Shown here: positions 1 to 54,730 of the stretch, one piece after another | How positions within the stretch are numbered: the first letter of the stretch is position 1 | How the letters are laid out: each line of letters opens with the position of its first letter | Source of the DNA: Nitrososphaeria archaeon | Lineage (GTDB): Archaea; Thermoproteota; Nitrososphaeria; Nitrososphaerales; JAAOZN01 | Reading direction: 5' to 3' | Assembly (NCBI GenBank): GCA_029775855.1 | Contig: JARVJZ010000002.1 | Span: 269,599 to 333,598, forward strand | Length of the DNA stretch: 64,000 bases | The notes under the pieces: model-generated | What the model saw: only the letters and a program-made list of their open reading frames with translations | Told to the model about the DNA's origin: nothing | The model's database searches: none | Made by a program: the position numbers and the translations under genes

Positions 1-197
1 TCAACGCGATCCGCTAAGTCATAAGCCAAAATAGACTCGACAGAAGTTGAAGGATCAAACCCTTTTGCTCTAGCCTTTAAAGCCACTTCATTTAGCTTCT
101 TAAATTCAATTAACAACTGCTCCTGAAATTTCTTTTGCCTATCAGACATGGCGCCTCTAACATATTCTTTATTGAGCACATCTTCTTGTGACATCAT
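1..197 (-). CDS. polC: DNA polymerase D large subunit (DP2), 5' fragment running off the window
   Basis: Manual translation MMSQEDV...EFKKLNEVALKARAKGFDPSTSVESILAYDLADRV matches the DP2 N-terminal AR.KG.DP...VE...A.D.A.RV pattern; not in the ORF track. Confidence 0.85.
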   Translation of the reverse strand, partial: MMSQEDVLNKEYVRGAMSDRQKKFQEQLLIEFKKLNEVALKARAKGFDPSTSVESILAYDLADRV

Positions 198-203
198 GTG
201 ATA

Positions 204-965
204 TCACAATGCCTTAGCAGATTCGGCAGCGTTCACAATTTTGCTTAAAAGTTTCCTACCATCCTTTGACTCAAGCAGAGTGCCAATAACTAAGATATCG
301 GCTCCGCATTTAACTAACTCTTCAGCAATTTCAGGCTTTGTTATTCCACCGCCAACGATTAGTACGCCGTCGTAGACTTTTCTAACAGCTTGAACCATTT
401 GTGATGATACATGTGATATCACACCTGAACCAGCTTCAAGATATAGAAAGCGCATACCCAAATATTGACTAGCTAAAGCGTACATGGCTGCTATTTCTGG
501 CTTTGAATTCGGAATACCTCTAGCTTTACCTATAAACCCAGCTGCGCCTCCTTCGCCAACTATAAGATAAGCCATCGGAATAGCTTCTAATCCGTACTTT
601 TTAACTAGTAACGCGCCTAAAGCTTGAGCTTCGGTTATAAAGTAGGTATTCTCAGAGTTCAGGAGCGAGCTAAATAAAATAGCATCTGCACTAGGCACGA
701 CACTATTAACATTACTTGGAAAGATTATAACAGGCTTTGCTACAGCTTTCTTTATCGCTCTTACGACCTTATCTAATTCTAGCTGATCCATTGCTGTAGA
801 GCCGCCTACAAGTATCGCAGCCACGCCAGCTTTGTCTGCTTCCTTAGCCATCTTAGCAGCTTCTTGTTCGGTAAGACCTTCTGAGTCTATTAATCCGAAG
901 CAGATAGCACCTCTCTTCTTAATTTCGTTTTTAATAAGTTGCTCAACACTATACTTATTGGTCAC
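204..965 (-). CDS. Geranylgeranylglyceryl phosphate synthase
   Basis: LIDS..., ILVGGS, FPSN, LYLEAGSG and VGGGI motifs of the GGGPS/PcrB TIM barrel. Confidence 0.93.
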   Translation of the reverse strand: MTNKYSVEQLIKNEIKKRGAICFGLIDSEGLTEQEAAKMAKEADKAGVAAILVGGSTAMDQLELDKVVRAIKKAVAKPVIIFPSNVNSVVPSADAILFSSLLNSENTYFITEAQALGALLVKKYGLEAIPMAYLIVGEGGAAGFIGKARGIPNSKPEIAAMYALASQYLGMRFLYLEAGSGVISHVSSQMVQAVRKVYDGVLIVGGGITKPEIAEELVKCGADILVIGTLLESKDGRKLLSKIVNAAESAKAL

Positions 966-1209
966 TTTTGATCTTCCCCGCCATAAATTGATCTACAAAT
1001 TCGTTGTAGATGTCTATTACTTCTTTTCGCCCAGTAAATTCATAGTCGCGCGTTAGCCTACAGTTCCCGCAGGAGATTAAAGCAAGGTGTTCACCTTTGA
1101 GTTTAACCCTGACGCCTGATACTCCACAGTTTGGGCAGGTAAATACTTTAGGCAGAGTTCTTCTTACTACCCTAATCACTTTTCTTCTTCGTCTACCCAA
1201 GTTGACCAC
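955..1209 (-). CDS. elf1: Transcription elongation factor Elf1-like zinc ribbon
   Basis: Basic N-terminus GRRRRK, LPKVFTCPNC, CGNC, ID(I)YNEFVD. Confidence 0.9.
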   Translation of the reverse strand: MVNLGRRRRKVIRVVRRTLPKVFTCPNCGVSGVRVKLKGEHLALISCGNCRLTRDYEFTGRKEVIDIYNEFVDQFMAGKIKSDQ

Positions 1210-1267
1210 TTAGTATAGGGCTTGCTATTTAAAAAGGTCACTTTTCCACTTGCAAACCATATCAATA

Positions 1268-1294
1268 AATATGTTTTGGTTAACGAAACATATT
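1268..1294. promoter_or_regulatory. Inverted repeat in the divergent promoter between elf1 and the origin-adjacent genes
   Basis: AATATGTTT-N9-AAACATATT, perfect 9-bp arms. Confidence 0.45.
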
Positions 1295-1366
1295 ATTTCA
1301 GCAGTTTTCCTAAATGGAAAGGGGATGAGGAAAAAGAATAATTATACCATTCTGTATTAATGGGTT

Positions 1367-1768
1367 GTGCTTAAAATAATGCAACAAGAAAATAAGCTAC
1401 TACTCAGCCTAATTGAAGGTTCTACTCTCACAAATGCCCAAGTAGACACATTACTATGTGAAATAGAAGGTAAAGGTGCAGCAAAACAATTGAGAGAAAG
1501 GGCTGCCATGAGAGACAAAGAAAACATTACACTAGGCGCTTACTCAAGAACAAGAAAACAAGCATACATGAGAATCAGGAAGGTTCTAAAAACAGTACTT
1601 TTACTATCGTATTTGGGCATCTTTTCACAAGACGGATTAAACACATTAGTAAAAGCAGCAGAATTAATAAGCAGAGTCAAAACAGCTAATCTAACTGATG
1701 AAGACATAATAAAATTAAACAAACTTATAGACGAAACATTAAGCAATCTAATTGTGATATCACAGTAA
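1367..1768 (+). CDS. Hypothetical protein, possible HTH-like DNA-binding protein, origin-adjacent
   Basis: 133 aa helical ORF; LTNAQVDTL and ITLGAYSRTRKQA resemble an HTH; same orientation as the next ORF, 30 nt apart. Confidence 0.65.
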   Translation: MLKIMQQENKLLLSLIEGSTLTNAQVDTLLCEIEGKGAAKQLRERAAMRDKENITLGAYSRTRKQAYMRIRKVLKTVLLLSYLGIFSQDGLNTLVKAAELISRVKTANLTDEDIIKLNKLIDETLSNLIVISQ

Positions 1769-1798
1769 AGGTCATATACAAGCATCACATATCACAAA

Positions 1799-2332
1799 AT
1801 GATGTTAGAACTAATAATAGCAAGCATAGCTTTACTATTAGCTATCGTCGCCCTATTTATCAACATAAAACGAAACCACAAGCAAAATAACGCAAACTAT
1901 GATGTGGTCTTGGCCCTTTCCGAGGAATATTCGCGAAGAATGAATAAGTTGGAAACTAGACTGGTTGATCTTCAAGTTAGATTGGATATTATAGAAACTA
2001 GGATAGAGAAACCCACTCTTCATAGTGATGTAGAAGAAGTAAAGAAGATTAAAGGTTTCAATAATGTGATATCACAAAAGCCGCAAATTGATATCACAAA
2101 GTTTTCCAAGGGATTAAGTGAGTTTGAGTTGGCAGTACTTAGATGTGTTGCTGAAGGTGCGAAGACACCGAGTGAGGTTAAGGCTGTTGTTGGACATACC
2201 AGAGAGCATGTTGCTAGAGCGCTTAAAGATCTTTATGAGGAAGGTTTTCTTTTTAGGCAGGGTGGTAGACCATTTATTTATTCATTGTCTGATAAGGGTA
2301 GAGCTGTTCTTAGTGGGGATTCTCGTGCTTAA
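1799..2332 (+). CDS. Membrane-anchored coiled-coil winged-helix protein
   Basis: N-terminal hydrophobic helix (LIIASIALLLAIVALFINI), heptads (MNKLETRLVDLQVRLDIIETRI), C-terminal wHTH (TPSEVKAVVGHTREHVARALKDLYEEGFL...PFIYSLSDKG). Confidence 0.8.
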   Translation: MMLELIIASIALLLAIVALFINIKRNHKQNNANYDVVLALSEEYSRRMNKLETRLVDLQVRLDIIETRIEKPTLHSDVEEVKKIKGFNNVISQKPQIDITKFSKGLSEFELAVLRCVAEGAKTPSEVKAVVGHTREHVARALKDLYEEGFLFRQGGRPFIYSLSDKGRAVLSGDSRA

Positions 2333-2695
2333 TGTGGTCTTTCTGTAAATATATCCTGTTCCTATTCTTACTCTTTTTAGCATTCTTTGGTCGACTAATC
2401 TGTTTAGGTAGGTGGATAATGTTGTGAGCTTTATAGGTTGTTGATATTTGCTTTCGTAGGCTTCTTGTAAGTTTGCTGTTGTGAAGTTAGAGGCTGGAAA
2501 TTCTTCATCTATTAATGCGCATACTTTTGAGAAGATTGTGTCTACTTCAGTTTTTTCCTCTTCCCTTTCGCCGCCTAGAAACTCATATACTTCTATCAAT
2601 TTATGCATCTTCTCTTTCGATAGAGGGCCTTCTATTGTAAGAGAATATTTACTACCCTCCTCGTCTGTAAATTCAATCTTCATCCTTTTTGGCAT
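2282..2695 (-). CDS. Hypothetical winged-helix protein divergent from cdc6 across oriC
   Basis: N-terminal beta hairpin (MKIEFTDEEGSKYSLTIEG) plus wHTH-like C-terminus (FTTANLQEAYE...IKLTTLSTYLNRLV...GYIY); ATG at 2695 preferred. Confidence 0.75.
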   Translation of the reverse strand: MPKRMKIEFTDEEGSKYSLTIEGPLSKEKMHKLIEVYEFLGGEREEEKTEVDTIFSKVCALIDEEFPASNFTTANLQEAYESKYQQPIKLTTLSTYLNRLVDQRMLKRVRIGTGYIYRKTTLSTRIPTKNSSTLIRQ

Positions 2696-2865
2696 ATTTT
2701 GCCACAATAAGATATCAAGTTCAACTTATACATTGAAGGTGTGAAAAAGTGAACAAGTTTGTCAAACCATCATTTACTGAGCCAAATGTAATGTTATTAA
2801 CTACTCTATTACATTATTCACTATTTTACAATTATCAAACTTTTCGCTAACAATCAAGAATATGA

Positions 2866-2887
2866 TTTGCAGTGGAAATGGAGGGGT
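2866..2887 (+). promoter_or_regulatory. ORB element 1
   Basis: TTTGCAGTGGAAATGGAGGGGT. Confidence 0.8.
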
Positions 2888-2929
2888 GTGCCAAAACACC
2901 TTTTAACTATTAAATAGGGCATATTTTTG

Positions 2930-2951
2930 GCTCCAGTGGAAATAAAGGGGT
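2930..2951 (+). promoter_or_regulatory. ORB element 2
   Basis: GCTCCAGTGGAAATAAAGGGGT, near-perfect ORB consensus with G-string. Confidence 0.9.
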
Positions 2952-3003
2952 GCCTGTGAACGGTAAGTGCAAGTATATTCACAAATACTAGATAAGAAGG
3001 GGT

Positions 3004-3024
3004 ACCCCTTTGTTTCAGCTGGAG
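3004..3024 (-). promoter_or_regulatory. ORB element 3 (inverted)
   Basis: Reverse complement CTCCAGCTGAAACAAAGGGGT. Confidence 0.85.
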
Positions 3025-3171
3025 ATTTCAATTAGGCTTCTTCTTGCTCTTTGTGTGACCGAATTGACATAACAGTCATTATTTTTGCCCAAAACAGAGA
3101 TATAATTTAGATAAAGAAACAAGTACGGGATAGACCAAACAATTCCTCATAATTAACTATTTAGGGGATAC

Positions 3172-3192
3172 TTCCTATGGAAGCGATGGGGT
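3172..3192 (+). promoter_or_regulatory. Degenerate ORB abutting the cdc6 start
   Basis: TTCCTATGGAAGCGATGGGGT. Confidence 0.55.
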
Positions 3193-4410
3193 GTGCGGCT
3201 AAACTTGGGTAGTGAAGCAGATCAAAAAAAGATAATTAACTCAATATTTACCAAAGCAGCTGAAGGGTCAAGAATAATAAAGGATGCTGAACCCTTAAGA
3301 CCTGATTATGTGCCACCTAAACTTCTTTTCAGAGATGAACAAATTACTGCTGTAGCTCAAATCGTTGCACCTATTCTTAGGAAGCAGCGCTGCTCTAATG
3401 TGCTACTTTACGGTAAAACAGGTACTGGGAAGACTGCTACGGCTCGTCTGGTTCTTAATGAGCTTAGGTTGAAGGCTCAAGAGTTTAAGATTCCTGTTTG
3501 TTTATGTTACACTAATTGTAGACTTGCTGGGACTGAGTACAGGGTTGTTCTAGATCTTGCGGAAAGTGTTGGTGTTAAGATACCCTTCACAGGTTTATCC
3601 TTAGGTGAAGCGTATAGTAGGGTTGCTGCTCAAATATCAGATAATAACTTAAATTTTCTAGTAGTTTTGGATGAGATTGATTATTTGGCTAAAAATTCAA
3701 CAGGTAACCTTCTCTATGAGTTAACACGCTCACATGAGAAGTTAACCCCTGGTGGTATATCGTTAATCGGGATCTCCAATGATCTTCGTTTTAAGGAGAT
3801 GCTTGATCCGCGTGTTTTGAGCAGTTTAGGTGAAGAAGAGATGGTTTTTCCACCTTATTCAGTCGAAGAGCTTAGACTAATTTTAAAGGAGCGTGTTAAG
3901 CTAGCTTTCAATGATGGCTGTATAACTGAGGGTGCAGTAAACTTATGTGCAGCATTAGCCGGTTCTGAACACGGTGATGCAAGAAGAGCTGTCGATTTAC
4001 TTAGGGTGTCTGCTGAAGTCGCTGAGCGTGAAGGAAAGGCTAGGGTAGAAGAACATCATATTAAGATTGCTCTGCAGAAGATGGAGCAAGACCGATTGAT
4101 AGAAGCTTTAAGAGTTTTACCGCTTCAAGCTAAGTTGATTCTCTTATCAGTCATAAAATCAGAAGACTCCTCCTCTACAGGCTCTATTTACCAAACATAC
4201 CTTAGATTAAGTTCTAGAGTTGGTGTTGAAACACTCACTGCAAGAAGGGTGAGCGGTATACTTTCCGAATTAGATATGCAGGGTTTAATTTCGGCTAATG
4301 TTTTAAGCAAGGGTAGGTATGGTAGATCTAAACGGGTCTCTTTACTTGTATCTAAGCATCTTGTTCTAGATGTTTTAACTCAAGATCCGATTATTGCTGC
4401 TGTAATTTAG
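3193..4410 (+). CDS. cdc6: Orc1/Cdc6 replication initiator
   Basis: L.PDYVP..L.FRD, Walker A GKTGTGKT, Walker B VVLDEID, GDARRA, C-terminal wH with GRYGR; start may be TTG at 3205. Confidence 0.97.
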   Translation: MRLNLGSEADQKKIINSIFTKAAEGSRIIKDAEPLRPDYVPPKLLFRDEQITAVAQIVAPILRKQRCSNVLLYGKTGTGKTATARLVLNELRLKAQEFKIPVCLCYTNCRLAGTEYRVVLDLAESVGVKIPFTGLSLGEAYSRVAAQISDNNLNFLVVLDEIDYLAKNSTGNLLYELTRSHEKLTPGGISLIGISNDLRFKEMLDPRVLSSLGEEEMVFPPYSVEELRLILKERVKLAFNDGCITEGAVNLCAALAGSEHGDARRAVDLLRVSAEVAEREGKARVEEHHIKIALQKMEQDRLIEALRVLPLQAKLILLSVIKSEDSSSTGSIYQTYLRLSSRVGVETLTARRVSGILSELDMQGLISANVLSKGRYGRSKRVSLLVSKHLVLDVLTQDPIIAAVI

Positions 4411-5845
4411 TGAAGTCTAAGGTAATGACCTGTAAGGTTGATAGGTCTACTATGGGTAGAATTGCTGGTGTAGGGTTTATACCCATGTCAAGTTGATAAC
4501 TTGTCTGGCTCTGCCATGTGCCTGAGTTAATTAGTAAGCATCCACGGTAGCGCTCAGTGTCGAGTATATGTATATGTCCTGTGTGAAATATGTCTGGTAT
4601 CTGGTCTATAACCAACAAGTCTTCATAAGTTGGTAAGATCGGTGTCCTTCTGCCGTAAATTGGAGCTAAATGTCTTGCCTTTAATAGGTTCTTCATAGCT
4701 AAAGCAGGGCGCTCCACTTTCAAACCCGGTGTTGTCGCCACAACATCTTCTAAACTTTTACCGTGATACATCAAAACTTTAACTCCTTCTAGCTCAAGCC
4801 ATACTGGATTGCTTACTAAAACTACATTCGAAAGTTCGCTTAGAGAAGACGCGTACTCTTTAGGTATAGGCGGCTGTGGGATGGATTGCCTAACTGGCTC
4901 GTGATTGCCTGGGCTGATGAAGATTTGTATGTTCTGTGGTATGTTTTTTAAAAGAGCAGCCACTTCATTGAATTGTTGTTTAACATCCGCTGTAATAAGT
5001 TCTTTTTCTTGGTTAGGGTAAACACCAACGCCATCTATGATATCACCACAAATTAGAAGGTAGCGTATTCGTAATGCGATTTCATTGTCTTTTTTGTTAA
5101 GCCAATCAATAAAGGTTTTAAATGCTTGCTTTAAAAAATATTTGTTCCCAATATGTAGATCTGATGTTAGAACCGCGTATAATCTCTTTTTGGAGAGGTT
5201 TGGCACATGTTCAGGTATGTCTGGAAGCGTTATAGAGTCAATTGTGTAAATTTTCTTTCTGATGGGGGTTATTGAAGCGACTACTAGCGCATCTAATGGC
5301 GCTTCTTGTATATTTTTTATTATCGAAACTTCAAATGTTGTGGCTTCTATTTTGTTAGTCAGATCTTCTAAGATTATGGTTGCAGATCCTTTTTTGATTG
5401 TCTTCGAGTAGATTAGACCAGCTACCTTCATAGGTAATTTACTATCTTCTAATCTTGTGATACTTTCTATGTTTCCACTATCTCGCCGCTTTTTTGCCAA
5501 GGCTAACAATTTTTGGTATCTGCTTAGGAAGAGTTGTCTGAAGCCTTCTACTCCGTCAGCGGCCTTCACTTTTTCATAATTTTGTAAAACTTTAAAGTTT
5601 AGAGGTTCGTTTAGTTCTGTTTCATCTATCTTCATTTCGGTATCCTTTTTTGTGGTGAAGCGTTGTATGTCTTCAGCCTTTATCGTTCTGTCCCCTTCTT
5701 CGCCTTTTAATTTAATTACTTCTTCTATAAGCGCACCCACATTAGTTTCTTTTGACATCTGCAGCAGCAGGTTGAATGCTTTAGGCTCAATTTGGTATCC
5801 CTTCGCAACGACTTCCCGTATGAGTTGTGCTGCGTTGTCGGACAT
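4391..5845 (-). CDS. polB: DNA polymerase D small subunit (DP1)
   Basis: OB fold plus calcineurin-like motifs SDLHIG, GDIIDG.G.YP.Q, PGNHE, YHG, RHLAP, GHIH, NSGTWQ. Confidence 0.96.
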   Translation of the reverse strand: MSDNAAQLIREVVAKGYQIEPKAFNLLLQMSKETNVGALIEEVIKLKGEEGDRTIKAEDIQRFTTKKDTEMKIDETELNEPLNFKVLQNYEKVKAADGVEGFRQLFLSRYQKLLALAKKRRDSGNIESITRLEDSKLPMKVAGLIYSKTIKKGSATIILEDLTNKIEATTFEVSIIKNIQEAPLDALVVASITPIRKKIYTIDSITLPDIPEHVPNLSKKRLYAVLTSDLHIGNKYFLKQAFKTFIDWLNKKDNEIALRIRYLLICGDIIDGVGVYPNQEKELITADVKQQFNEVAALLKNIPQNIQIFISPGNHEPVRQSIPQPPIPKEYASSLSELSNVVLVSNPVWLELEGVKVLMYHGKSLEDVVATTPGLKVERPALAMKNLLKARHLAPIYGRRTPILPTYEDLLVIDQIPDIFHTGHIHILDTERYRGCLLINSGTWQSQTSYQLDMGINPTPAILPIVDLSTLQVITLDFTKLQQQ

Positions 5846-8787: not shown

Positions 8788-9207
8788 TTACTCCCCTAAG
8801 ATCTGTAGTATAATATTCCTTGCGCGTGCCCTTATATCAAGCTCAATTAACACTATCTGCTGCCAAGTGCCCAAGCAGAGCCTCTGATTTCTGAATGGAA
8901 TGACTAAACTCGGCCCTAAAAGTGAAGCGCGGACATGAGAATGCCCGTTTCCGTCATGCCACATCTCCTCATGCCTATATTCAATATTTTTCGGCGCTAC
9001 TCTCTCTAACATCGCTGGTAAGTCTTTTAGTAAGCCTGGTTCATACTCTATTGTAGTTACAGCTGCCGTCGAGCCGACAACAAAGATCGTTAGTAACCCG
9101 TTTTCTAAACCTGAGGATTTTATTGCTTCCTGTGCTCTATCTGTTAGATCGACTATATCACATTCTCCTTTGGTTTGTATATGGATTTCTTTAGTAACTA
9201 TCTGCAT
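8788..9207 (-). CDS. YjbQ/UPF0047 family protein
   Basis: GSTAA.TTIEYEPGL, NGHSHVRASLLG, LGTWQQI. Confidence 0.93.
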   Translation of the reverse strand: MQIVTKEIHIQTKGECDIVDLTDRAQEAIKSSGLENGLLTIFVVGSTAAVTTIEYEPGLLKDLPAMLERVAPKNIEYRHEEMWHDGNGHSHVRASLLGPSLVIPFRNQRLCLGTWQQIVLIELDIRARARNIILQILGE

Positions 9208-9255
9208 ATTGTCCTCAGCCTACCATTAAGTTGGGTGATGTAAATATGCTGTGTC

Positions 9256-10773
9256 TTATGTTGGTAGTGGTGTCCATCTTTTCAAGAGGTTTATAAGTAG
9301 TCTAACACCCACACCAGTTGCACCCTTCGGTGTATATGGCTTTACCTTCGTCCCATCCTCAGGGGTGTATGCTGTACCAGCTATGTCCAGATGCGCCCAA
9401 GGAGTTGTATTTACAAAGTTGCTTAGAAAGGCTGCTGCTGTTATTGCTCCAGCAGATCTACCGCCTGAATTCTTTATATCTGCGACTTCACTCTTGATCT
9501 GGTCAAAATATTCCTTCCAAAGAGGAAGGGGCCAAACCCTTTCACCACTTACATCAGCTGCCTCCTTGACTTTATTCAGAAGCGCTTCATTATTACTAAA
9601 AAGCCCAGAAGCTTGCGAACCTAAGGCTACTACACACGCGCCAGTTAAAGTCGCTAAGTCAATTATCGCTTGAGGTTTTTCCCTCTCCACAGCATAAGCA
9701 AGCACATCTGCAAGAATAAGACGCCCCTCAGCGTCAGTATTCACAACCTCAGATGTCTTACCACCATAATGCTTTATCACATCACCAGGCTTATAGGCTG
9801 AACCGCTGGGTAGATTCTCCACGAGAGGAGCTATTGCTACAAGATTTAATGGTAGGTGAAGGTCAGCTGCAGACTGTATAGCTCCTATTACGGCTGCTGC
9901 TCCAGATTTATCGTATTTCATTTCCTCCATCTTTTCTGAAGGTTTAAGTGATATGCCTCCGCTGTCGAAAGTTACTCCTTTGCCTACCAGTACTATGGGC
10001 TTCTCATCTGCTTTCCCCCCTCTGTATCTAAGTATAACCACCTTAGGTTCCTCTTTACTTCCTTTTGAAACATTAAGTATACCACCCATACCCAGATTTT
10101 TGATCTCTTCTAAACCGAGCACAACACACTCTAAGCCAAACTTCTCAGCTACTTTTTTAGCCTCTTCTAAAACTAAACTTGGTGTCATGTCACTGCTAGG
10201 CATATTAGCTATATCCCGAGCCCACTTAACGCCTTCACATACCTTCTGAGTCTCTTCTACAACTGGTTTTAACTGCGCAGCCTTCCAATCTTGGTCTACA
10301 ATTAAAATCAATTCTTCAACACTTTTCTTTTCAGAGCGACTCTTATAGCGATTGAAGCTATATAGCGCTAACTCAGCACCTTCAACCACAGACTCTACCA
10401 TCTTACGCTCATCGAAGCCAGAGAGACTTGAATCAAACAAAGCATATCTTTGAAACCCAAGACTTGATACCCTTTGAGCAGCTTCAGCAGAAGCTATTCT
10501 AAAGGATTCACTCGTCAAATCCTGCTTTGGCCCTAATCCTACAAGTAGTAAGTAGTCTGGTTTAATTTTACCAGCTGTATATATCAAAAAACTAGTGTAG
10601 AGCTTACCTTTAAAGACCTCTGTGTTTAACGCTTTCATCACACCATTACCCAGCAGCTCATTAATTTCTTGCAGCGGTTGGCTAAGATACGTTGTGTCTT
10701 CAAGTAGAAAGGAAACAAGGACTGTTGCGTCAACATCCTTTGGTTTTACTGATGTAATAGATACTTTCAACAT
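9256..10773 (-). CDS. pepA: Leucyl aminopeptidase (M17)
   Basis: GKGVTFDSGG, MKYDKSG, NTDAEGRL, DLATLTGA, HLDIAG. Confidence 0.97.
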   Translation of the reverse strand: MLKVSITSVKPKDVDATVLVSFLLEDTTYLSQPLQEINELLGNGVMKALNTEVFKGKLYTSFLIYTAGKIKPDYLLLVGLGPKQDLTSESFRIASAEAAQRVSSLGFQRYALFDSSLSGFDERKMVESVVEGAELALYSFNRYKSRSEKKSVEELILIVDQDWKAAQLKPVVEETQKVCEGVKWARDIANMPSSDMTPSLVLEEAKKVAEKFGLECVVLGLEEIKNLGMGGILNVSKGSKEEPKVVILRYRGGKADEKPIVLVGKGVTFDSGGISLKPSEKMEEMKYDKSGAAAVIGAIQSAADLHLPLNLVAIAPLVENLPSGSAYKPGDVIKHYGGKTSEVVNTDAEGRLILADVLAYAVEREKPQAIIDLATLTGACVVALGSQASGLFSNNEALLNKVKEAADVSGERVWPLPLWKEYFDQIKSEVADIKNSGGRSAGAITAAAFLSNFVNTTPWAHLDIAGTAYTPEDGTKVKPYTPKGATGVGVRLLINLLKRWTPLPT

Positions 10774-10866
10774 TTGTCATCGATATATGCTTCGACTCAG
10801 ATGCTTATATCGTTGATGGCTCAACAGCTTTGTAAAAGAACGTTTGCGTAGACGGTTTACTGACGT

Positions 10867-11154
10867 TTACACGCGCTTACCCCTTATCAGCTCAAGCTCT
10901 AAGACAACAACTTTAAAAGGTAACCCGTCTCTGCCAACTACTGTGTCGCGGTCGATATTTGCGACACGTATTTCGACGTCTCTCATGAATCTGCTTTGAA
11001 GGAGTTGAACAACTTCTACAGCCACATTAATGGCACGCCCTCTGGCGCGAATTTTTATCCTTTTTTCGCCATTGTTAAAGAGGGTTATGCAAGCTGTGAC
11101 ATAGTTAAGGACAGGTTTAGATGTGCCAACTATCACGAGCTTGGGTTGGTTCAA
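10867..11154 (-). CDS. albA: Alba chromatin protein
   Basis: KPVLNYV, IRARGRAINVAVEV. Confidence 0.9.
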   Translation of the reverse strand: MNQPKLVIVGTSKPVLNYVTACITLFNNGEKRIKIRARGRAINVAVEVVQLLQSRFMRDVEIRVANIDRDTVVGRDGLPFKVVVLELELIRGKRV

Positions 11155-11261
11155 CTCCTCCCCTCTTATTAACGCTACAAACCACGCTTATATTAGCAGT
11201 GAGGTATAAGTCTCTTAGAATACTGAAGGCTTAAAAATATGATGTATGTTAATATCTTGCG

Positions 11262-11516
11262 ATGGTTGAAGACAGATTAGAGCGTGAGGACAAACCCCTT
11301 CTCTACATGCATAATCTTGGCATAGTTAATGTTAAGCGTGCCAAGAAGATCGAAGAATTGGCCTCCATACTATCTATAGGAATAGAAGAGTTAAAGAGGC
11401 TGCTCGGGCACAACGAAGCTCAAGGTTACATCGAAAGCACTGTGGTTGAAAATGGGGAGAAAGCCTACTATTTGAGCCCAAAGGGTATAGTAAAAGTCTG
11501 CTCTTGTTTTAGCTAA
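11262..11516 (+). CDS. Small winged-helix hypothetical protein
   Basis: IEELASIL...GYIE...YYLSPKGI pattern. Confidence 0.6.
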   Translation: MVEDRLEREDKPLLYMHNLGIVNVKRAKKIEELASILSIGIEELKRLLGHNEAQGYIESTVVENGEKAYYLSPKGIVKVCSCFS

Positions 11517-11537
11517 TGCTTCATAGCGTCAGTTAGG

Positions 11538-12143
11538 ATGGTTCTATTGAAGGTGTTGATCTTAAGCTGGGAATACCCTCCTCACATCGTGGGTGAGATG
11601 GCTTGGCACGTGCGTGAATTGGCAAGGCGTCTTAAAGCAAAAGGTTTAGATGTTTATGTAGCAACATACTCATCTTCGAACGAGCGTGTAGATGTTGATG
11701 AAGGTGTTGTTGTATCACGGGTCAAACCTCCTATTAGCGTTACATCAAATATTGTTGTATGGTCTTTGCTTTTCACTTCAAAACTGCAAGCCGCGGCTGC
11801 TGAGATGATCTATAAAAATGGTCCTTTTGATATAGTTGATGCGCATGAATGGATTACCGTTGACGCGGCATTAGCTCTTAAAGACCGTTTTGAAATACCC
11901 TTCGTCTACACTCTCCACAGTTTAGAGAAGCATCGTTCTGCAAACTCATCTACACCACTCAATATAGCTATCGAAGGTATAGAGGAGTTGGGGTGTAGAG
12001 AAGCAAAGTGTATAATAGTTAACTCCGAGTGGATGAGAAAAGAAGTAGTCACTAAGATTAGTGGAGTAGAAGAAAAGATAAATGTGGCTCAACCTTACAC
12101 AGAAAGTTGGATAGATAAAGTTTTAGAGTCCTACCAGCGGTGA
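11538..12143 (+). CDS. Glycosyltransferase family 4 N-terminal domain only
   Basis: SWEYPP..VG, AHEW, TLHSLE; ends before the C-terminal GT-B domain. Confidence 0.8.
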   Translation: MVLLKVLILSWEYPPHIVGEMAWHVRELARRLKAKGLDVYVATYSSSNERVDVDEGVVVSRVKPPISVTSNIVVWSLLFTSKLQAAAAEMIYKNGPFDIVDAHEWITVDAALALKDRFEIPFVYTLHSLEKHRSANSSTPLNIAIEGIEELGCREAKCIIVNSEWMRKEVVTKISGVEEKINVAQPYTESWIDKVLESYQR

Positions 12144-12153
12144 ACGAAACCCT

Positions 12154-13329
12154 TTGGATATAAGTGTTATTATGCTGACTTGGGAGTTTCCACCTAGAAT
12201 CATAGGTGGTATAGCACCGCACGTCTATAACCTGTCCACACAATTAGTCAAGCTTGGTGTAGATGTGCAAGTTGTGACTTGTGACTTCCCTAACACGCCT
12301 GAGTATGAGGTCGTTGAAGGTGTTGCTGTGCACAGATTCGATTCATATAAGCATCCAACGCCAGACTTCGCTGCTTGGATTCAATTGATGAATCTGAATA
12401 TGCAAAGAGCTGCTACGCAAATAATCAAGGCAAAAAAAGGTAGAGCAATAATACTGCATGCACATGACTGGCTAACCGCGAAGGCTGGTATAGGTTTAAA
12501 ACATCTAAATAGGCTGCCGCTCGTCACAACAATCCACGCTACTGAATATGGGCGTAGAGGTGGAGTATTTACAGAATATAATCAGATGATCCATGAGATC
12601 GAAGTTTGGCTTGGCCACGAGTCTAAGAAGGTTATATGTTGCAGCCGCTTTATGGCTGAGCAAGTAAATAAAGTTCTTGGGGTACCTTATGAGAAGATAC
12701 AAGTTATACCTAATGGAATAGATCCAAAGATCTTTTCGGGGTTAAAAGATGTGGATGCGGTGCGAAGTAGGTTTGTCGACAAAAATGGAGTTCTTATTCT
12801 TTTTGTCGGTAGGTTGGTTGTGGAGAAAGGTGTGCGTGTTCTTTTAGATGCTATCCCTAAAGTGCTTCGAAAGGTTGATGCGCGCTTTGTTATAGCTGGA
12901 GACGGCTACATGAAGAATGAAGTTCTAAGCCGAATTTCGCAAGATGGGCTTAAGGATAAGGTTGCTGTCACAGGATATCTCGACACTGAGATGATAAGAA
13001 AACTTTTTTTGGCTGCTGATGTATGCGTAGTACCATCCATCTACGAACCGTTTGGAATAGTTGCGTTAGAAGCTATGGCAGCAGGCTGCCCAGTAGTTGC
13101 ATCAGACACAGGTGGGCTTTCAGAGATCATAGAGCACGAGAAGACAGGCATTAAAGTCTACCCTAACAACGCTGATTCTCTTGCTTGGGGGATTTTAAGG
13201 GTGCTGGAGTCAAAAGAGCTTGTTGAGCAGATTCGGAAAAATATGCGTGAGAAGGTTGAACGTGAATATAAGTGGAGTGCTATCGCTGAAGCAACAAAAA
13301 ATGTTTACGAGAAGGTCGTTGCTAATTAA
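12154..13329 (+). CDS. Glycosyltransferase family 4
   Basis: WEFPP..GGI, HAHDW, FVGRL..EKG, PS.YEPFGIVALEAMA. Confidence 0.94.
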   Translation: MDISVIMLTWEFPPRIIGGIAPHVYNLSTQLVKLGVDVQVVTCDFPNTPEYEVVEGVAVHRFDSYKHPTPDFAAWIQLMNLNMQRAATQIIKAKKGRAIILHAHDWLTAKAGIGLKHLNRLPLVTTIHATEYGRRGGVFTEYNQMIHEIEVWLGHESKKVICCSRFMAEQVNKVLGVPYEKIQVIPNGIDPKIFSGLKDVDAVRSRFVDKNGVLILFVGRLVVEKGVRVLLDAIPKVLRKVDARFVIAGDGYMKNEVLSRISQDGLKDKVAVTGYLDTEMIRKLFLAADVCVVPSIYEPFGIVALEAMAAGCPVVASDTGGLSEIIEHEKTGIKVYPNNADSLAWGILRVLESKELVEQIRKNMREKVEREYKWSAIAEATKNVYEKVVAN

Positions 13330-14627
13330 AGGTAGTCTTTCATGCTCTTCTGATGCAAAGCTTCTCTTAGGATTACACTATGCTCTATCCAAGACCGTAA
13401 AGGCACATTAAGTAGACCTTTAACAAACTTCAACACATCGTCTAACGTATCAAATATCAGCGGCTTGCTCTTGAAGGCTGCGCGAACGCTTTCCCTAACA
13501 TTCCAAACACCAACAGGAAGTATGTACTCTGGATATATCTCGCGTAAAACGAGCGCTGTTGCTTGACGCCCATATCTGTTAAGAGCCTCAGCAACCGCTA
13601 GTCGTGTAGAATAGTAGCATCCACCTATAGCGGGGTAAGTCTTACGACCCCAGTATCCTTCATAATCGCCCATCAATGCAGGCTTAGATGAAGCCCCTTC
13701 AGGGTTCCAAGGTGTGCCTGGGAACCAAGCTTCTATCCACTCGAAGCTCCAAGTTTTTGGCATTAGTACGGCTATGTAGAGGTTTCCTATGTTCTTAAGG
13801 TAGTAGACTAAGTATTTATCCACTGTAGGTTTGTTTCTTACCTCTTTTACGAGTAATTCTGAAATTATGCTGTCTACTGCTGTTATGCTCCACCTTGTTG
13901 GAACAAGCCTCCGTCTTTTTCCTTCTCCGAACATTCCTAAGCTGAAGGCGCGCTGTATTCTTGTAACCATAACTCCTTTCCTATATAGGTCAGCTACAGC
14001 TTCTGCAGCCTTCAGATCTTTATCGTAATACGCCTTCTCTATTCTTTTATCAACACTACTATCTGCTGCCTTGAACGATCTTAAGGGTGCTGATGGGCCG
14101 AAGGGTTGAGTTATATCTGATAAGATGAGCATCTTTGTAGGCTTCTTTTCAAAGACCGCTTCTGCATCTACCGATCTTGTGCTTAACGCTAACTCTTGTA
14201 GTGTATCTAGAAGTCTATGCCCAGTTGAAGCGGCTTTAACATCAACTCTACTTTTGCCTCTAATAAGATTGTATCTGAAACTTACTATCTCTTCTATTCC
14301 TCTACCCAGCCACCACTCGGGTGTATCTAAAAGAACGGTATCACCGTAAAAATGGGGTATAAGAGGGCCGACATACACTTTTGGGTAGCCTAAGCGTCCT
14401 ACGAAAGCTGCTGGGGGTGTTGAACCAGCAAGTTGTTCACGGTCTATCTCACCTTTAATTTTAACTAAAGCTTCGGCTTTTAATAAGATGGGGCATCGTG
14501 CTTTACCGCAGAGCATCTTAGCTCCTCTACATGCTAAGCATAGGGTGGGGTAGACTCTGCCTGAAACCCTTATGCCTTCTCCAAGCGCTTCAACTATACT
14601 GTGTGGTAAAATATCTTCTATCCCCAC
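13326..14627 (-). CDS. nreA: Nre family DNA repair protein
   Basis: C..CRG...LCG...CP, FVGR.GYPKV, PTRWSITAVD, GGCYY, VGVW.VRE; C-terminal PIP-like QKSMKDYL. Confidence 0.93.
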   Translation of the reverse strand: MGIEDILPHSIVEALGEGIRVSGRVYPTLCLACRGAKMLCGKARCPILLKAEALVKIKGEIDREQLAGSTPPAAFVGRLGYPKVYVGPLIPHFYGDTVLLDTPEWWLGRGIEEIVSFRYNLIRGKSRVDVKAASTGHRLLDTLQELALSTRSVDAEAVFEKKPTKMLILSDITQPFGPSAPLRSFKAADSSVDKRIEKAYYDKDLKAAEAVADLYRKGVMVTRIQRAFSLGMFGEGKRRRLVPTRWSITAVDSIISELLVKEVRNKPTVDKYLVYYLKNIGNLYIAVLMPKTWSFEWIEAWFPGTPWNPEGASSKPALMGDYEGYWGRKTYPAIGGCYYSTRLAVAEALNRYGRQATALVLREIYPEYILPVGVWNVRESVRAAFKSKPLIFDTLDDVLKFVKGLLNVPLRSWIEHSVILREALHQKSMKDYL

Positions 14628-20166: not shown

Positions 20167-20458
20167 GGGGTGCGTTCTGGCCGTAACCCTCCTTCTGTTT
20201 TAGGTAGGATTCCGCTAAGCAGCCTACCCGAGGTTCATGCAGCCCTCATCACCTCATGTTTGGCCTTGCTCCCCGCGGGTCAACCGTTTCACTCTGAAGC
20301 TGGGAACCTCAGAGTTCCCCCATCACTGTGCCCCAGCTCAGATGTCGTTTCTGTTTTGTAGCCATCGGTCTCCCGATGCGCCTCGCGGCGCCGCGGTGCT
20401 GCAAGGAGGGAGGAGTTTCCTCAGGATACCCCGAAACCTACCCGCCAGCTCACACCCC
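20167..20458 (-). ncRNA. rnpB: RNase P RNA
   Basis: GC-rich island; minus strand carries GAGGAAACTCC (CR-I), ACAGAAACG, TGAAACGG, GAGCAAG and AAACAGAAGGAGGGTTAC (CR-V); ends GGGGTG/CACCCC can pair (P1). Confidence 0.95.
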
Positions 20459-53593: not shown

Positions 53594-54730
53594 TTAGGGC
53601 TTCTTCCAGCTTAGTGGTGAAACATCCACTAGGCTCTTTAGAACATTATTTTTGAAGTTGTTGGCTACTTCAGTGAAACCTATGCTCTGATAATCTTCTA
53701 TAAGTCCTTTATCAGCTAATTCGGTCATCTTGGGGTCAAGGGGGATTACGCCGAGAAAGGGTATGTTAAATTTCTTCGCAGCCTTTTCACCCTTAGGCTC
53801 GCCAAATAGGTTGATTTTGCCGCCGCAGTGTGGGCAGATCAAGTAACCCATGTTTTCTATGAGCCCAAGCACTGGCACCTTTATGGATCTAGCCATATTA
53901 ACTGCTTTAGCAACTATCATTAACGCCAAGTCTTGTGGTGTGGAGACGACGACAACGCCATCTATAGGAATAGATTGGTAAACTGTAAGGGGTGCATCGC
54001 TTGTGCCTGGTGGTAGGTCGATTATTAAGAAGTGTAAATCTCCCCAGTCTACTTCAGAGTATAGCTGCTTTATCACATTACTTACTATTGGCCCCCTCCA
54101 GACTACAGCTTGCTCTGGGTCGTCTAAGAGTAGGTTTACTGAGATGGCTTTTATTCCGCTTTTTGTTGTAGGTGGTAGTATTCCGTTTTGGCTTATTCTG
54201 GGTCTGTCGGTTAGGTTAAAGAGCTTAGCTATACTTGGACCAGTGACATCTGCGTCTAATACACCTACTTCGTAGCCCATTCTTCTGAGTTCGGTTGCAA
54301 GTAGGGCTGAGACAGATGATTTACCTACTCCGCCTTTGCCTGAAACTACAGCTATAATGTGTGCTATGTTCTTCTTATCTAGCTTCTCTATACCCGTGGT
54401 GGCTGCTTTTTTACCGAACTTCTGCTGAAGTTTCTCCTTGAGCCTATCTAGCTCCTCTTTGCTCATTGATGTAGTCTCAACCGAAACTGCTTTAACACCA
54501 TTTAGCTTCTTTACATTCTTCTCGACATCGCTTTTGATGGTGTTGGCTAGAGGGCAGCTCGGCACAGTAAGAGCAATCAGTATCTTGACGACACCATCCT
54601 CTACTTTAATGTCTCTTACCATTCCTAGCTCAACTATGTTTAAGCCTATCTCAGGGTCAACTACTTCAGAAAGCGCTTCCAAGATCTTACTCTTAGTTAA
54701 CATTGAGATTTCATTGTAAAAAGGGGTCAT
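53594..54730 (-). CDS. mrp: Mrp/ApbC/NBP35 Fe-S carrier ATPase with N-terminal DUF59
   Basis: V.DPEI..NIVELG, CP, GKGGVGKS, WRGP, DLPPGTSD, ENM...CPHC. Confidence 0.94.
   Translation of the reverse strand: MTPFYNEISMLTKSKILEALSEVVDPEIGLNIVELGMVRDIKVEDGVVKILIALTVPSCPLANTIKSDVEKNVKKLNGVKAVSVETTSMSKEELDRLKEKLQQKFGKKAATTGIEKLDKKNIAHIIAVVSGKGGVGKSSVSALLATELRRMGYEVGVLDADVTGPSIAKLFNLTDRPRISQNGILPPTTKSGIKAISVNLLLDDPEQAVVWRGPIVSNVIKQLYSEVDWGDLHFLIIDLPPGTSDAPLTVYQSIPIDGVVVVSTPQDLALMIVAKAVNMARSIKVPVLGLIENMGYLICPHCGGKINLFGEPKGEKAAKKFNIPFLGVIPLDPKMTELADKGLIEDYQSIGFTEVANNFKNNVLKSLVDVSPLSWKKP

Follow-up and report, generated by a model that had tools for sequence, protein, structure and literature searches.

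The window analysed here, a 64,000-nt stretch from the genome of a Nitrososphaeria archaeon, carries close to its left end three open reading frames (ORF) of unassigned function, ORF1 (1367-1768, plus strand, 133 aa), ORF2 (1799-2332, plus strand, 177 aa) and ORF3 (2282-2695, minus strand, 137 aa), which sit between the PolD-large, PcrB and Elf1 genes on one side and an origin of replication with cdc6 on the other. The original prediction, made from this DNA, had proposed that this trio and a palindromic site form a module anchoring or partitioning the origin region or regulating initiation; the three ORFs proved real at these coordinates, as did the tail-to-tail overlap of 51 nt between the end of ORF2 (2332) and that of ORF3 (2282). 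On the left, the window begins inside the gene for the large subunit of DNA polymerase D (PolD-large or DP2; 3-197, minus strand, ATG at 197-195), which was identified through a full-length homologue in the locus of a relative (L041; such loci carry L numbers throughout) matching all three DP2 Pfam domains, and continues with the genes for PcrB/GGGP synthase (204-965) and Elf1 (955-1209), both on the minus strand. On the right, the origin core comprises three origin recognition box (ORB)-like elements, located at 2866-2888 and 2931-2954 (both plus) and at 3001-3024 (inverted), which follow one another from the ORF3 side to the cdc6 side inside a 497-nt intergenic region. The Orc1/Cdc6 initiator gene occupies 3193-4410 on the plus strand (Cdc6_C 3.9e-23, Cdc6_lid 7.1e-22), and the gene for the PolD small subunit (DP1; 4391-5845, minus strand) comes directly after it. 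Along the contig, cumulative GC skew reaches its peak no more than ca. 10 kb from the origin region.

Of 41 genomes sampled from the same order, 35 gave a match to ORF2. In the 20 order-level loci that were compared, PcrB, ORF2 and ORF3 are all found in 20/20 and Cdc6 lies beside ORF3 in 18/20, while in other orders of the class (18 loci) Cdc6 is beside ORF3 in 17 and the ORF1-ORF2 pair in 13; both order-level misses of Cdc6 and the single class-level one correspond to loci ending at a contig end. In other classes (20 loci), Cdc6 occurs beside ORF3 in 11 and ORF2 is present in 12, so that the conservation beside cdc6 on which the original prediction depended was found when synteny was checked. 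Because loci were picked through ORF2 or ORF3 matches, the adjacency of these two genes is partly a matter of construction, and the relatives in all these counts are non-independent samples; the start codons of orthologues were set by rule, and the evidence is comparative throughout. An ORF3 profile detected a single full-length copy in 136/151 genomes of the class (a count that includes the unpublished genome G165) and in 110/111 of the high-quality ones; across the phylum it matched 134/201 genomes, with whole families empty (e.g. 0/16, 0/8 and 0/7). Relatives labelled Bathyarchaeota appear as a lead from the Atlas only. Where the cluster is split, ORF3 stays by the origin and ORF1 and ORF2 remain together (L038, L041, L042, L049, L052 and L053). 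A single module of three proteins finds no support in these data: ORF1, ORF2 and the motif described below move together, and ORF3 tracks the ORB elements, sometimes apart from the other two. The two PolD subunit genes bracket the origin region, DP2 on the left and DP1 directly after cdc6, and the order DP2-PcrB-Elf1-ORF1-ORF2-ORF3-oriC-cdc6-DP1 is found again in many relatives.

The product of ORF2 is predicted to combine a membrane helix (residues 5-23), a heptad region (ca. 42-69), a linker and a winged helix (105-173), which agrees with the architecture that had been claimed for it. Residues 5-23 form a hydrophobic 19-mer with a Kyte-Doolittle value of 2.94, preceded by no lysine or arginine and followed by three within the next 15 residues. 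An N-terminal hydrophobic 19-mer (Kyte-Doolittle of at least 1.6) occurs in 37/38 orthologues, 31 of which have its start among their first 10 residues; in 36 of the 37, lysines and arginines are more numerous in the 15 residues after the helix than before it, the latter side having nearly always none. This charge asymmetry, taken with the positive-inside rule, suggests an N-out/C-in topology that would place the winged helix in the cytoplasm, with ca. 0-10 residues at most outside the membrane in most orthologues and hence nothing sensor-like there. The pattern is that of a signal anchor, and it speaks for a helix that is neither cleaved nor exporting the winged helix-turn-helix (wHTH), as the original prediction had supposed. 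A cleaved signal peptide was considered and rejected, given the absence of a basic n-region, a hydrophobic stretch of at least 19 residues and the basic residues placed after it. Within residues 42-69 all eight a/d heptad positions are hydrophobic, and a crude in-house score was better than that of 50/50 shuffles, in favour of a short coiled coil in this protein.

The C-terminal part of ORF2 (105-173) resembles winged-helix families. Residues 107-167 match HTH_27 (PF13463) with 23.1 bits against a gathering cut-off of 22.2, by which the protein passes membership of the MarR/TrmB-clan winged helices; it falls below the cut-off for TrmB (23.0 vs 25.6), MarR_2 and HVO_A0261_N, and a profile search of PDB returned generic winged-helix matches only (AdcR at E 1e-3). 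In a 38-sequence alignment reaching other classes, R135, E136, H137, R140 and Y161 are invariant; the winged helix includes a helix of the form S/T-R-E-H-x-x-R, of which R-E-H-x-x-R is present in 38/38 orthologues. A complex prediction of ORF2 (24-177) with ORF1, run without controls, scored 0.00 against a mark of 0.32 and weighs neither way on binding.

ORF1 had been described as helix-turn-helix (HTH)-like. No match to Pfam (none at E<=1), NCBIfam or PDB sequences was found for it, and its family counts 437 representatives at E<=1e-3 among 1.84 billion, nearly all of 115-190 aa. The AlphaFold2 model has a predicted local distance difference test (pLDDT) score of 93.4 and is all-helical, with seven helices that may comprise an HTH (ca. 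18-80) followed by a C-terminal helical hairpin. Foldseek returned nothing at E<1 for this model. With VIA-align, whose HTH matches span 7-88, residues 18-88 align to HTH domains of the LuxR/sigma-70-region-4/Tfx type at Z 5.8-6.3 (EsrB Z 6.3, EnfR (8hno) Z 6.1, DesR Z 5.9 and several sigma region-4 chains), and residues 85-133 align to the dimerisation hairpins of histidine kinases and CheA; since all these Z values are below the level at which the tool is reliable for helical models, they are a lead only. R61 and Q65, placed in the putative recognition helix, are invariant in 18 order-level sequences, and a lead from the Atlas (score 0.82) points to a cluster with Sigma70_r4 in 14% of its members. 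A sigma-70-region-4/Tfx-like HTH is thus weakly supported by the model, as is the earlier HTH-like description, which finds no echo in the sequence families. A protein of the representative library, P0147 (362 aa), begins with an ORF1-family domain, after which come ca. 100 further residues, then a hydrophobic segment and a tail that resembles a coiled coil and contains FREHITR; its identification as an ORF1-ORF2 fusion was rejected, as hhalign against the ORF2 profile gave a probability of 1% and E 0.055 over 11 columns.

ORF3 is transcribed away from the origin, as had been stated, and alignments of orthologues favour the ATG at 2695 as its start. Its AlphaFold2 model (pLDDT 80.6, 52-sequence alignment) shows a beta-hairpin and helix (4-39) joined to a winged helix (54-119) by a linker of low confidence. 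The predicted wHTH is also recovered by Penicillinase_R (23.7 bits vs 22.6), to which ORF3 75-135 aligns over profile positions 18-76 of 115, i.e. the wHTH part only. A repressor of the BlaI/MecI/CopY type was considered and set aside, the profile being matched in part and the domain order reversed, with the extra domain N-terminal in ORF3; CopY_TcrY scored 21.5 against a cut-off of 121.95. Foldseek gave generic winged helices, headed by F93 of Sulfolobus turreted icosahedral virus (3.8e-3) and followed by ArsR, Fur, MecI and TubR, profile searches of PDB gave likewise generic winged-helix matches only, and the resemblance to Cdc6_C is weak (E 0.081, 13.3 bits vs a cut-off of 25.1). For none of the three proteins, then, did a characterised regulator family lay claim to more than a generic winged-helix domain.

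The tie of ORF3 to the origin was examined with an ORB-like pattern consisting of CCAGTGGAAA with at most one mismatch, 3-6 bases, and GGGG. This pattern occurs within 700 nt upstream of ORF3 in 38/58 loci, compared with 4 matches in the remaining 833 kb. The positive loci include five without an adjacent cdc6 (L062-L065 and L068), and because ORB elements adjoin ORF3 even there, it is the origin itself that ORF3 tracks. In L031, ORF3 (8977-9372) shares its strand with ORF2 and cdc6 and is not convergent with ORF2, so that the tail-to-tail overlap is not universal. A lone ORB-core-like 10-mer, CAAGTGGAAA, was also seen in the Elf1-ORF1 intergenic region (1239-1258, minus strand, one mismatch, without the GGGG tail), ca. 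1.6 kb left of the origin core.

The DNA motif itself is rare. The palindrome TGTGATATCACA occurs in the window in four exact copies (starting at 197, 412, 1753 and 2065) against 0.15 expected from shuffles, and these are the only four in the whole genome (1,507,471 bases; 0.14 expected), all of them within 1.9 kb at this locus and at most 2.7 kb from the ORB elements. The first copy, P1 (197-208), holds the stop codon of PcrB and adjoins the ATG of PolD-large, while P2 (412-423) lies inside PcrB, where it codes for G-V-I-S-H, 215 nt upstream of that ATG. P3 (1753-1764) belongs to the final codons of ORF1 (V-I-S-Q) and precedes the ORF2 ATG by 35-46 nt; P4 (2065-2076) lies inside ORF2 (N-V-I-S-Q). 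The palindrome has two stop-free frames only, and P2, P3 and P4 share the V-I-S-(H/Q) one. Two ATCAC half-sites, ATCACATATCACAAA, are located directly before the start codon of ORF2 (1784-1798, -15 to -4), and a partial site, TGATATCACA, occurs inside ORF2 in a D-I-T frame (2089-2098). The claim that palindrome copies lie in or between the three genes thus applies to P3, P4 and the partial sites; P1 and P2, being in PcrB or at the PcrB/PolD-large junction, are outside the 1367-2707 interval to which it referred. The TGTGAT/ATCACA hexamer follows the same distribution, in that the two densest 500-nt intervals of the genome fall at 1603-2200 and 3-600. Between P3 (-46 to -35) and the two half-sites lies a BRE/TATA-like element (transcription factor B recognition element and TATA box), TAAAGGTCATATAC (1766-1779, plus strand), which reads as a putative promoter of ORF2 and is kept in same-genus loci; we take this arrangement, in which sites flank a TATA-like element ahead of the ATG, to be the geometry of an archaeal autorepressor. 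Strain variants, ca. 40 positions across four sequencing runs, number 0 in the palindromes against ca. 0.9 expected there, which is too few to inform. Most are transitions, and a 1-nt insertion polymorphism adjoins the first ORB element (2865/2867).

In the same genus, TGTGAYRTCACA remains concentrated at the locus (3/3, 3/4 and 5/6 of the copies in three genomes), and the site at the P1 junction is also found in L013-L015, with a core GTGAYRTCAC at that place in L021 and L027. Genomes of other families have 0-2 copies of TGTGAYRTCACA, among them the PcrB site in 6 of the 7 tested. In PcrB, the residues that follow the universal LEAGSG are V-[IT]-S-[HQ] in 12 loci besides the window, always encoded as GTG-AYR-TCA-CAN, and are unrelated to one another among other families; within this gene, those lineages therefore seem to keep the DNA sequence rather than the protein sequence. 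GTGAYNNGTGAY was found concentrated at the locus in two of five genomes (3/5 and 4/6 of the hits) and not in the other three (1/6, 0/4 and 0/6).

At larger distances it is the half-site that persists. Between -100 and +10 of ORF2, 127 GTGAY/RTCAC pentamers were counted in 38 loci across the phylum where 13.8 were expected (ca. 9-fold), and at least three sites are present upstream of ORF2 in 31 of these loci. When each ca. 16-kb locus was scanned for its densest 120-nt cluster, this overlapped ORF1/ORF2 in 16 of the 20 loci at order level, and in distant classes arrays of the type GTGAT-N2-GTGAT and ATCACA-N4/5-ATCACA are visible. In the Nitrosopumilaceae (77 loci), sites stand at ca. -40, -30 and -10 of ORF2 in 72-75 loci amid variable flanks; here (L071-L150) an ATCAC-N5-ATCAC direct repeat, preceded by gttaatctaaagtgtgaaataatg, lies ca. 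30-45 nt upstream of ORF2 in 72-74 of the 77. When the cluster of genes is split, the motif goes with ORF1/ORF2 and not with ORF3 (L038, L057 and L061), and in L051 the sites cluster upstream of ORF2, ca. 650 nt from ORF1. These data tie the motif to ORF1/ORF2 throughout the phylum and support a conserved protein-site pair. In L067, a relative from another class, a GTGAT cluster with a TATA-like element (10620-10720) comes after ORF1 and before a gene for a 1041-aa multi-pass membrane protein (10783-13908), which takes the place of ORF2.

Our preferred reading, to which we give somewhat less than even weight, is that the trio represents an ancient origin-linked set of site-specific DNA-binding proteins with ORF2 as a membrane-anchored, origin-proximal binder. 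It would consist of two sub-modules, one formed by ORF1, ORF2 and their own cis-element, the other by ORF3. The (T)GTGAY repeats would be the cis-element of ORF1/ORF2, turned in this genus into four perfect 12-bp palindromes. ORF2 would be bitopic, crossing the membrane once, with a few residues outside and its heptad region and winged helix in the cytoplasm. It would bind the repeats flanking its own TATA-like element, probably as a dimer and perhaps jointly with ORF1, resulting in autoregulation, and it would also bind the further copies that lie in its own coding sequence, in PcrB and where PcrB meets PolD-large. Since the likely binder is itself fixed in the membrane, occupancy of these sites would keep a stretch of ca. 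2 kb there, at a distance of 0.8-2.7 kb from the ORB elements. Tethering may be a selected function or a by-product of binding. As for ORF3, it would be a dimerising winged-helix protein that most likely acts locally on the origin and/or on the divergent cdc6 promoter. At the minimum, the sequence comparisons could be read as autoregulation by a conserved protein-operator pair.

Several observations weigh against the membrane-anchored binder. The motif is unevenly kept: 0-1 sites occur upstream of ORF2 in 7/38 loci, with none at all in L070, a few of the GTGAY sites that were counted are simply GTG start codons followed by AT, and the full palindrome is limited to part of the order and is missing from the Nitrosopumilaceae and from family f4. 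For L067 and L070, where ORF2 is found elsewhere, the sites are densest on the 3' side of ORF1. Nor is the protein uniform, for the heptad score exceeds all shuffles in 18/38 orthologues only and five ORF2 relatives of other classes (L056, L065, L066, L068 and L069) appear to have no membrane helix. Finally, the best-conserved site positions are those of ordinary operators, and P1 and P2 could equally be operators of PolD-large.

These last two points lead to an alternative that we hold to be a serious possibility, if a minority one, namely that the three proteins are ordinary local transcription factors whose linkage to oriC reflects co-regulation of replication genes. ORF2 and/or ORF1 would then autoregulate and control PolD-large through P1 and P2, ORF3 would regulate cdc6 and itself out of the intergenic region that the two genes share, and the membrane anchor would serve regulation, by sequestration or proteolytic release, rather than positioning of the chromosome. 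The regulator-type folds of all three proteins fit such a role, the best-conserved sites lie between the TATA-like element and the start of ORF2, the positions of P1 and P2 relative to PolD-large recur in other families, and local regulators are most commonly encoded divergently from their targets. Against it, the strict palindrome is absent elsewhere in the genome, which would leave such regulators with little to control except themselves and one neighbour, and P2 and P4 lie deep in coding sequence. ORF2 has no sensor domain, linkage to ORB elements is kept where cdc6 is not adjacent, and the non-operonic gene order held throughout the phylum suggests a cis-acting constraint.

A stronger form of the preferred reading, which we consider rather unlikely, would make ORF2 and ORF1 an archaeal origin anchor, i.e. 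a membrane-embedded, centromere-like binder, and ORF3 a third, hitherto unrecognised origin factor that modulates Orc1/Cdc6 at the ORB elements. The GTGAY/palindrome cluster would be pinned to the membrane, so that new origins are positioned or segregated with no adjacent ParA/SegA motor. Such an anchor would extend to the Thermoproteota that carry the trio, Nitrososphaeria among them, and would be the archaeal counterpart of the bacterial proteins RicO or RacA (see below).

We judge as improbable a partner switch resembling that of extracytoplasmic function (ECF) sigma and anti-sigma factors, in which ORF1 would read the GTGAY repeats and the membrane protein ORF2 would hold or release ORF1. 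This possibility draws on the alignment of ORF1 18-88 to the LuxR/sigma-region-4/Tfx HTH, on the Sigma70_r4 lead and on the invariant R61 and Q65 of its putative recognition helix; moreover, the repeat cluster remains with ORF1 in L067 and L070, and ORF1 and ORF2 are still paired after having moved in L038. Yet ORF2 has a winged helix of its own with an invariant recognition helix, needless for an anti-factor, the structural matches of ORF1 stay under the level reliable for helical models and are joined by no Pfam Sigma70_r4 match, and in L051 the cluster is next to ORF2 and away from ORF1. That the palindromes have an unlinked reader or no protein partner at all, and lie near the trio by coincidence, is very improbable: their GATATC core is a common restriction-type palindrome, but all four genome copies fall within 1.9 kb, the half-site is tied to ORF1/ORF2 across the phylum, conservation inside PcrB is seen at the codon level, and an explanation by restriction was rejected as TGATATCA is undepleted genome-wide (33 observed vs 36 expected).

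Other features of the window bear on its surroundings. No ParA-like gene adjoins the trio, in agreement with the earlier claim, since matches to PF13614 in this genome are confined to contig C4 and to a site at ca. 54.2 kb of the window. The latter is a weak ParA/MinD-like P-loop match (ca. 54242-54361, minus strand; 26 bits, or 30.5 when in-frame neighbours are included) in an open frame of 383 aa, and is the sole such match on its contig. An archaeal RNase P RNA was found at 20172-20453 on the minus strand (RF00373, 225 bits), the sole Rfam match of the window at gathering score. The locus (window 1-3300) is present in seven sequencing runs of hot-spring metagenomes from three studies, with 53-99% of sampled words. 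A look for RNA runs containing this interval returned none; a run labelled metatranscriptomic but flagged as probably DNA covers PcrB and ORF1 in part and was kept out of the evidence.

A literature search for the trio genes or the motif found no paper describing them, the exact motif included, in the article texts covered. To our knowledge, chromosome positioning and segregation in archaea outside the Sulfolobales, and origin factors besides Orc1/Cdc6, are largely unknown. In this respect the locus offers three conserved proteins, to which the libraries searched assign no function, and a defined DNA motif, at the one type of origin that has been mapped among ammonia-oxidising archaea and related lineages (origin mapping in Nitrosopumilus is reportedly due to Pelve et al. 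in 2013). Because orthologues exist in cultured Nitrosopumilus relatives, the idea of an origin-linked trio is directly testable, and the Nitrosopumilaceae repeat with gttaatctaaagtgtgaaataatg provides a ready-made binding probe for these organisms. A rare motif and a candidate membrane-anchored binder likewise make a link between origin and membrane testable in archaea. Should the tether be wrong, the results would still define a protein-operator pair spread across the phylum and, next to the origin, a regulator of replication genes. We class the trio as uncharacterised families with a putative role for which all precedents to date are bacterial.

Among known systems, membrane-bound regulators of the ToxR/CadC type and ArnR of Sulfolobus carry a cytoplasmic winged helix on a single membrane helix and bind promoters while membrane-bound. 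These proteins have an extracytoplasmic or additional sensor domain, whereas ORF2 would have essentially nothing outside and the strict site is confined to this locus within the genome; on the former ground ORF2 was not assigned to the ToxR/CadC-like sensor-regulators. RacA and Noc of Bacillus subtilis bind DNA site-specifically and draw particular parts of the chromosome to the membrane or pole. RacA reaches the membrane via DivIVA, Noc belongs to the ParB family and carries an amphipathic helix, and both lack the bitopic winged-helix layout predicted for ORF2. No relation of ORF2 to ParB was seen, ParB chains matching its profile only at E 0.05-0.4. SegAB of the Sulfolobales and ParABS share with the trio a site-specific binder, sites clustered near its own gene and a proposed part in chromosome maintenance, and they differ in that no Walker ATPase gene adjoins the trio. 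ORF2 and ORF3 were accordingly not classed with ParB or SegB, as searches of Pfam, NCBIfam and PDB profiles gave no match to either family and no ATPase is adjacent.

EnfR (TON_1525), a member of the Tfx family, acts on an inverted repeat as a dimer (PMC10570040). ORF1 18-76 aligns to EnfR 4-55, a sigma-70-region-4-like HTH, with a root-mean-square deviation of 1.4 A over 52 residues and 25% identity, at a Z of only 6.1; unlike EnfR, ORF1 has no alpha+beta 'note-head' domain, ends in a helical hairpin and has no sequence-family match. WhiP, a Cdt1-like winged-helix initiator, is encoded directly beside oriC3 of Sulfolobus (PMC4010727). ORF3 is also a winged-helix gene beside a replication origin; it accompanies Cdc6 in most loci, at an ORB/cdc6-type origin, instead of replacing it, and is small, with a single wHTH and a sole weak link to Cdc6_C (E 0.08).

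The nearest parallel to the putative role of ORF2 is RicO of Staphylococcus aureus, whose function has been demonstrated experimentally and in which a sequence-specific DNA-binding domain and a coiled coil are combined with an amphipathic helix that binds the membrane (bioRxiv 10.64898/2026.03.06.710092). It acts on nine ricS sites around oriC, in the origin-proximal region, spread over ca. 700 kb, and the anchoring itself proceeds without ParA (bioRxiv 10.64898/2026.03.06.710092). ORF2 would possess the same three kinds of parts, and the copies of the motif are confined to the vicinity of the origin in this genome (4/4 within 2.7 kb of the ORB elements), with 3/3, 3/4 and 5/6 of the copies at the locus in same-genus genomes. 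RicO differs in being bacterial and in having its DNA-binding domain at the N-terminus and its amphipathic helix at the C-terminus, whereas ORF2 is reversed, with an N-terminal transmembrane helix; the ricS sites extend over ca. 700 kb vs four sites within 1.9 kb here. RicO is the closest functional analogue of ORF2, whose own function is here a candidate one, and the likeness drawn is one of parts and of putative function.

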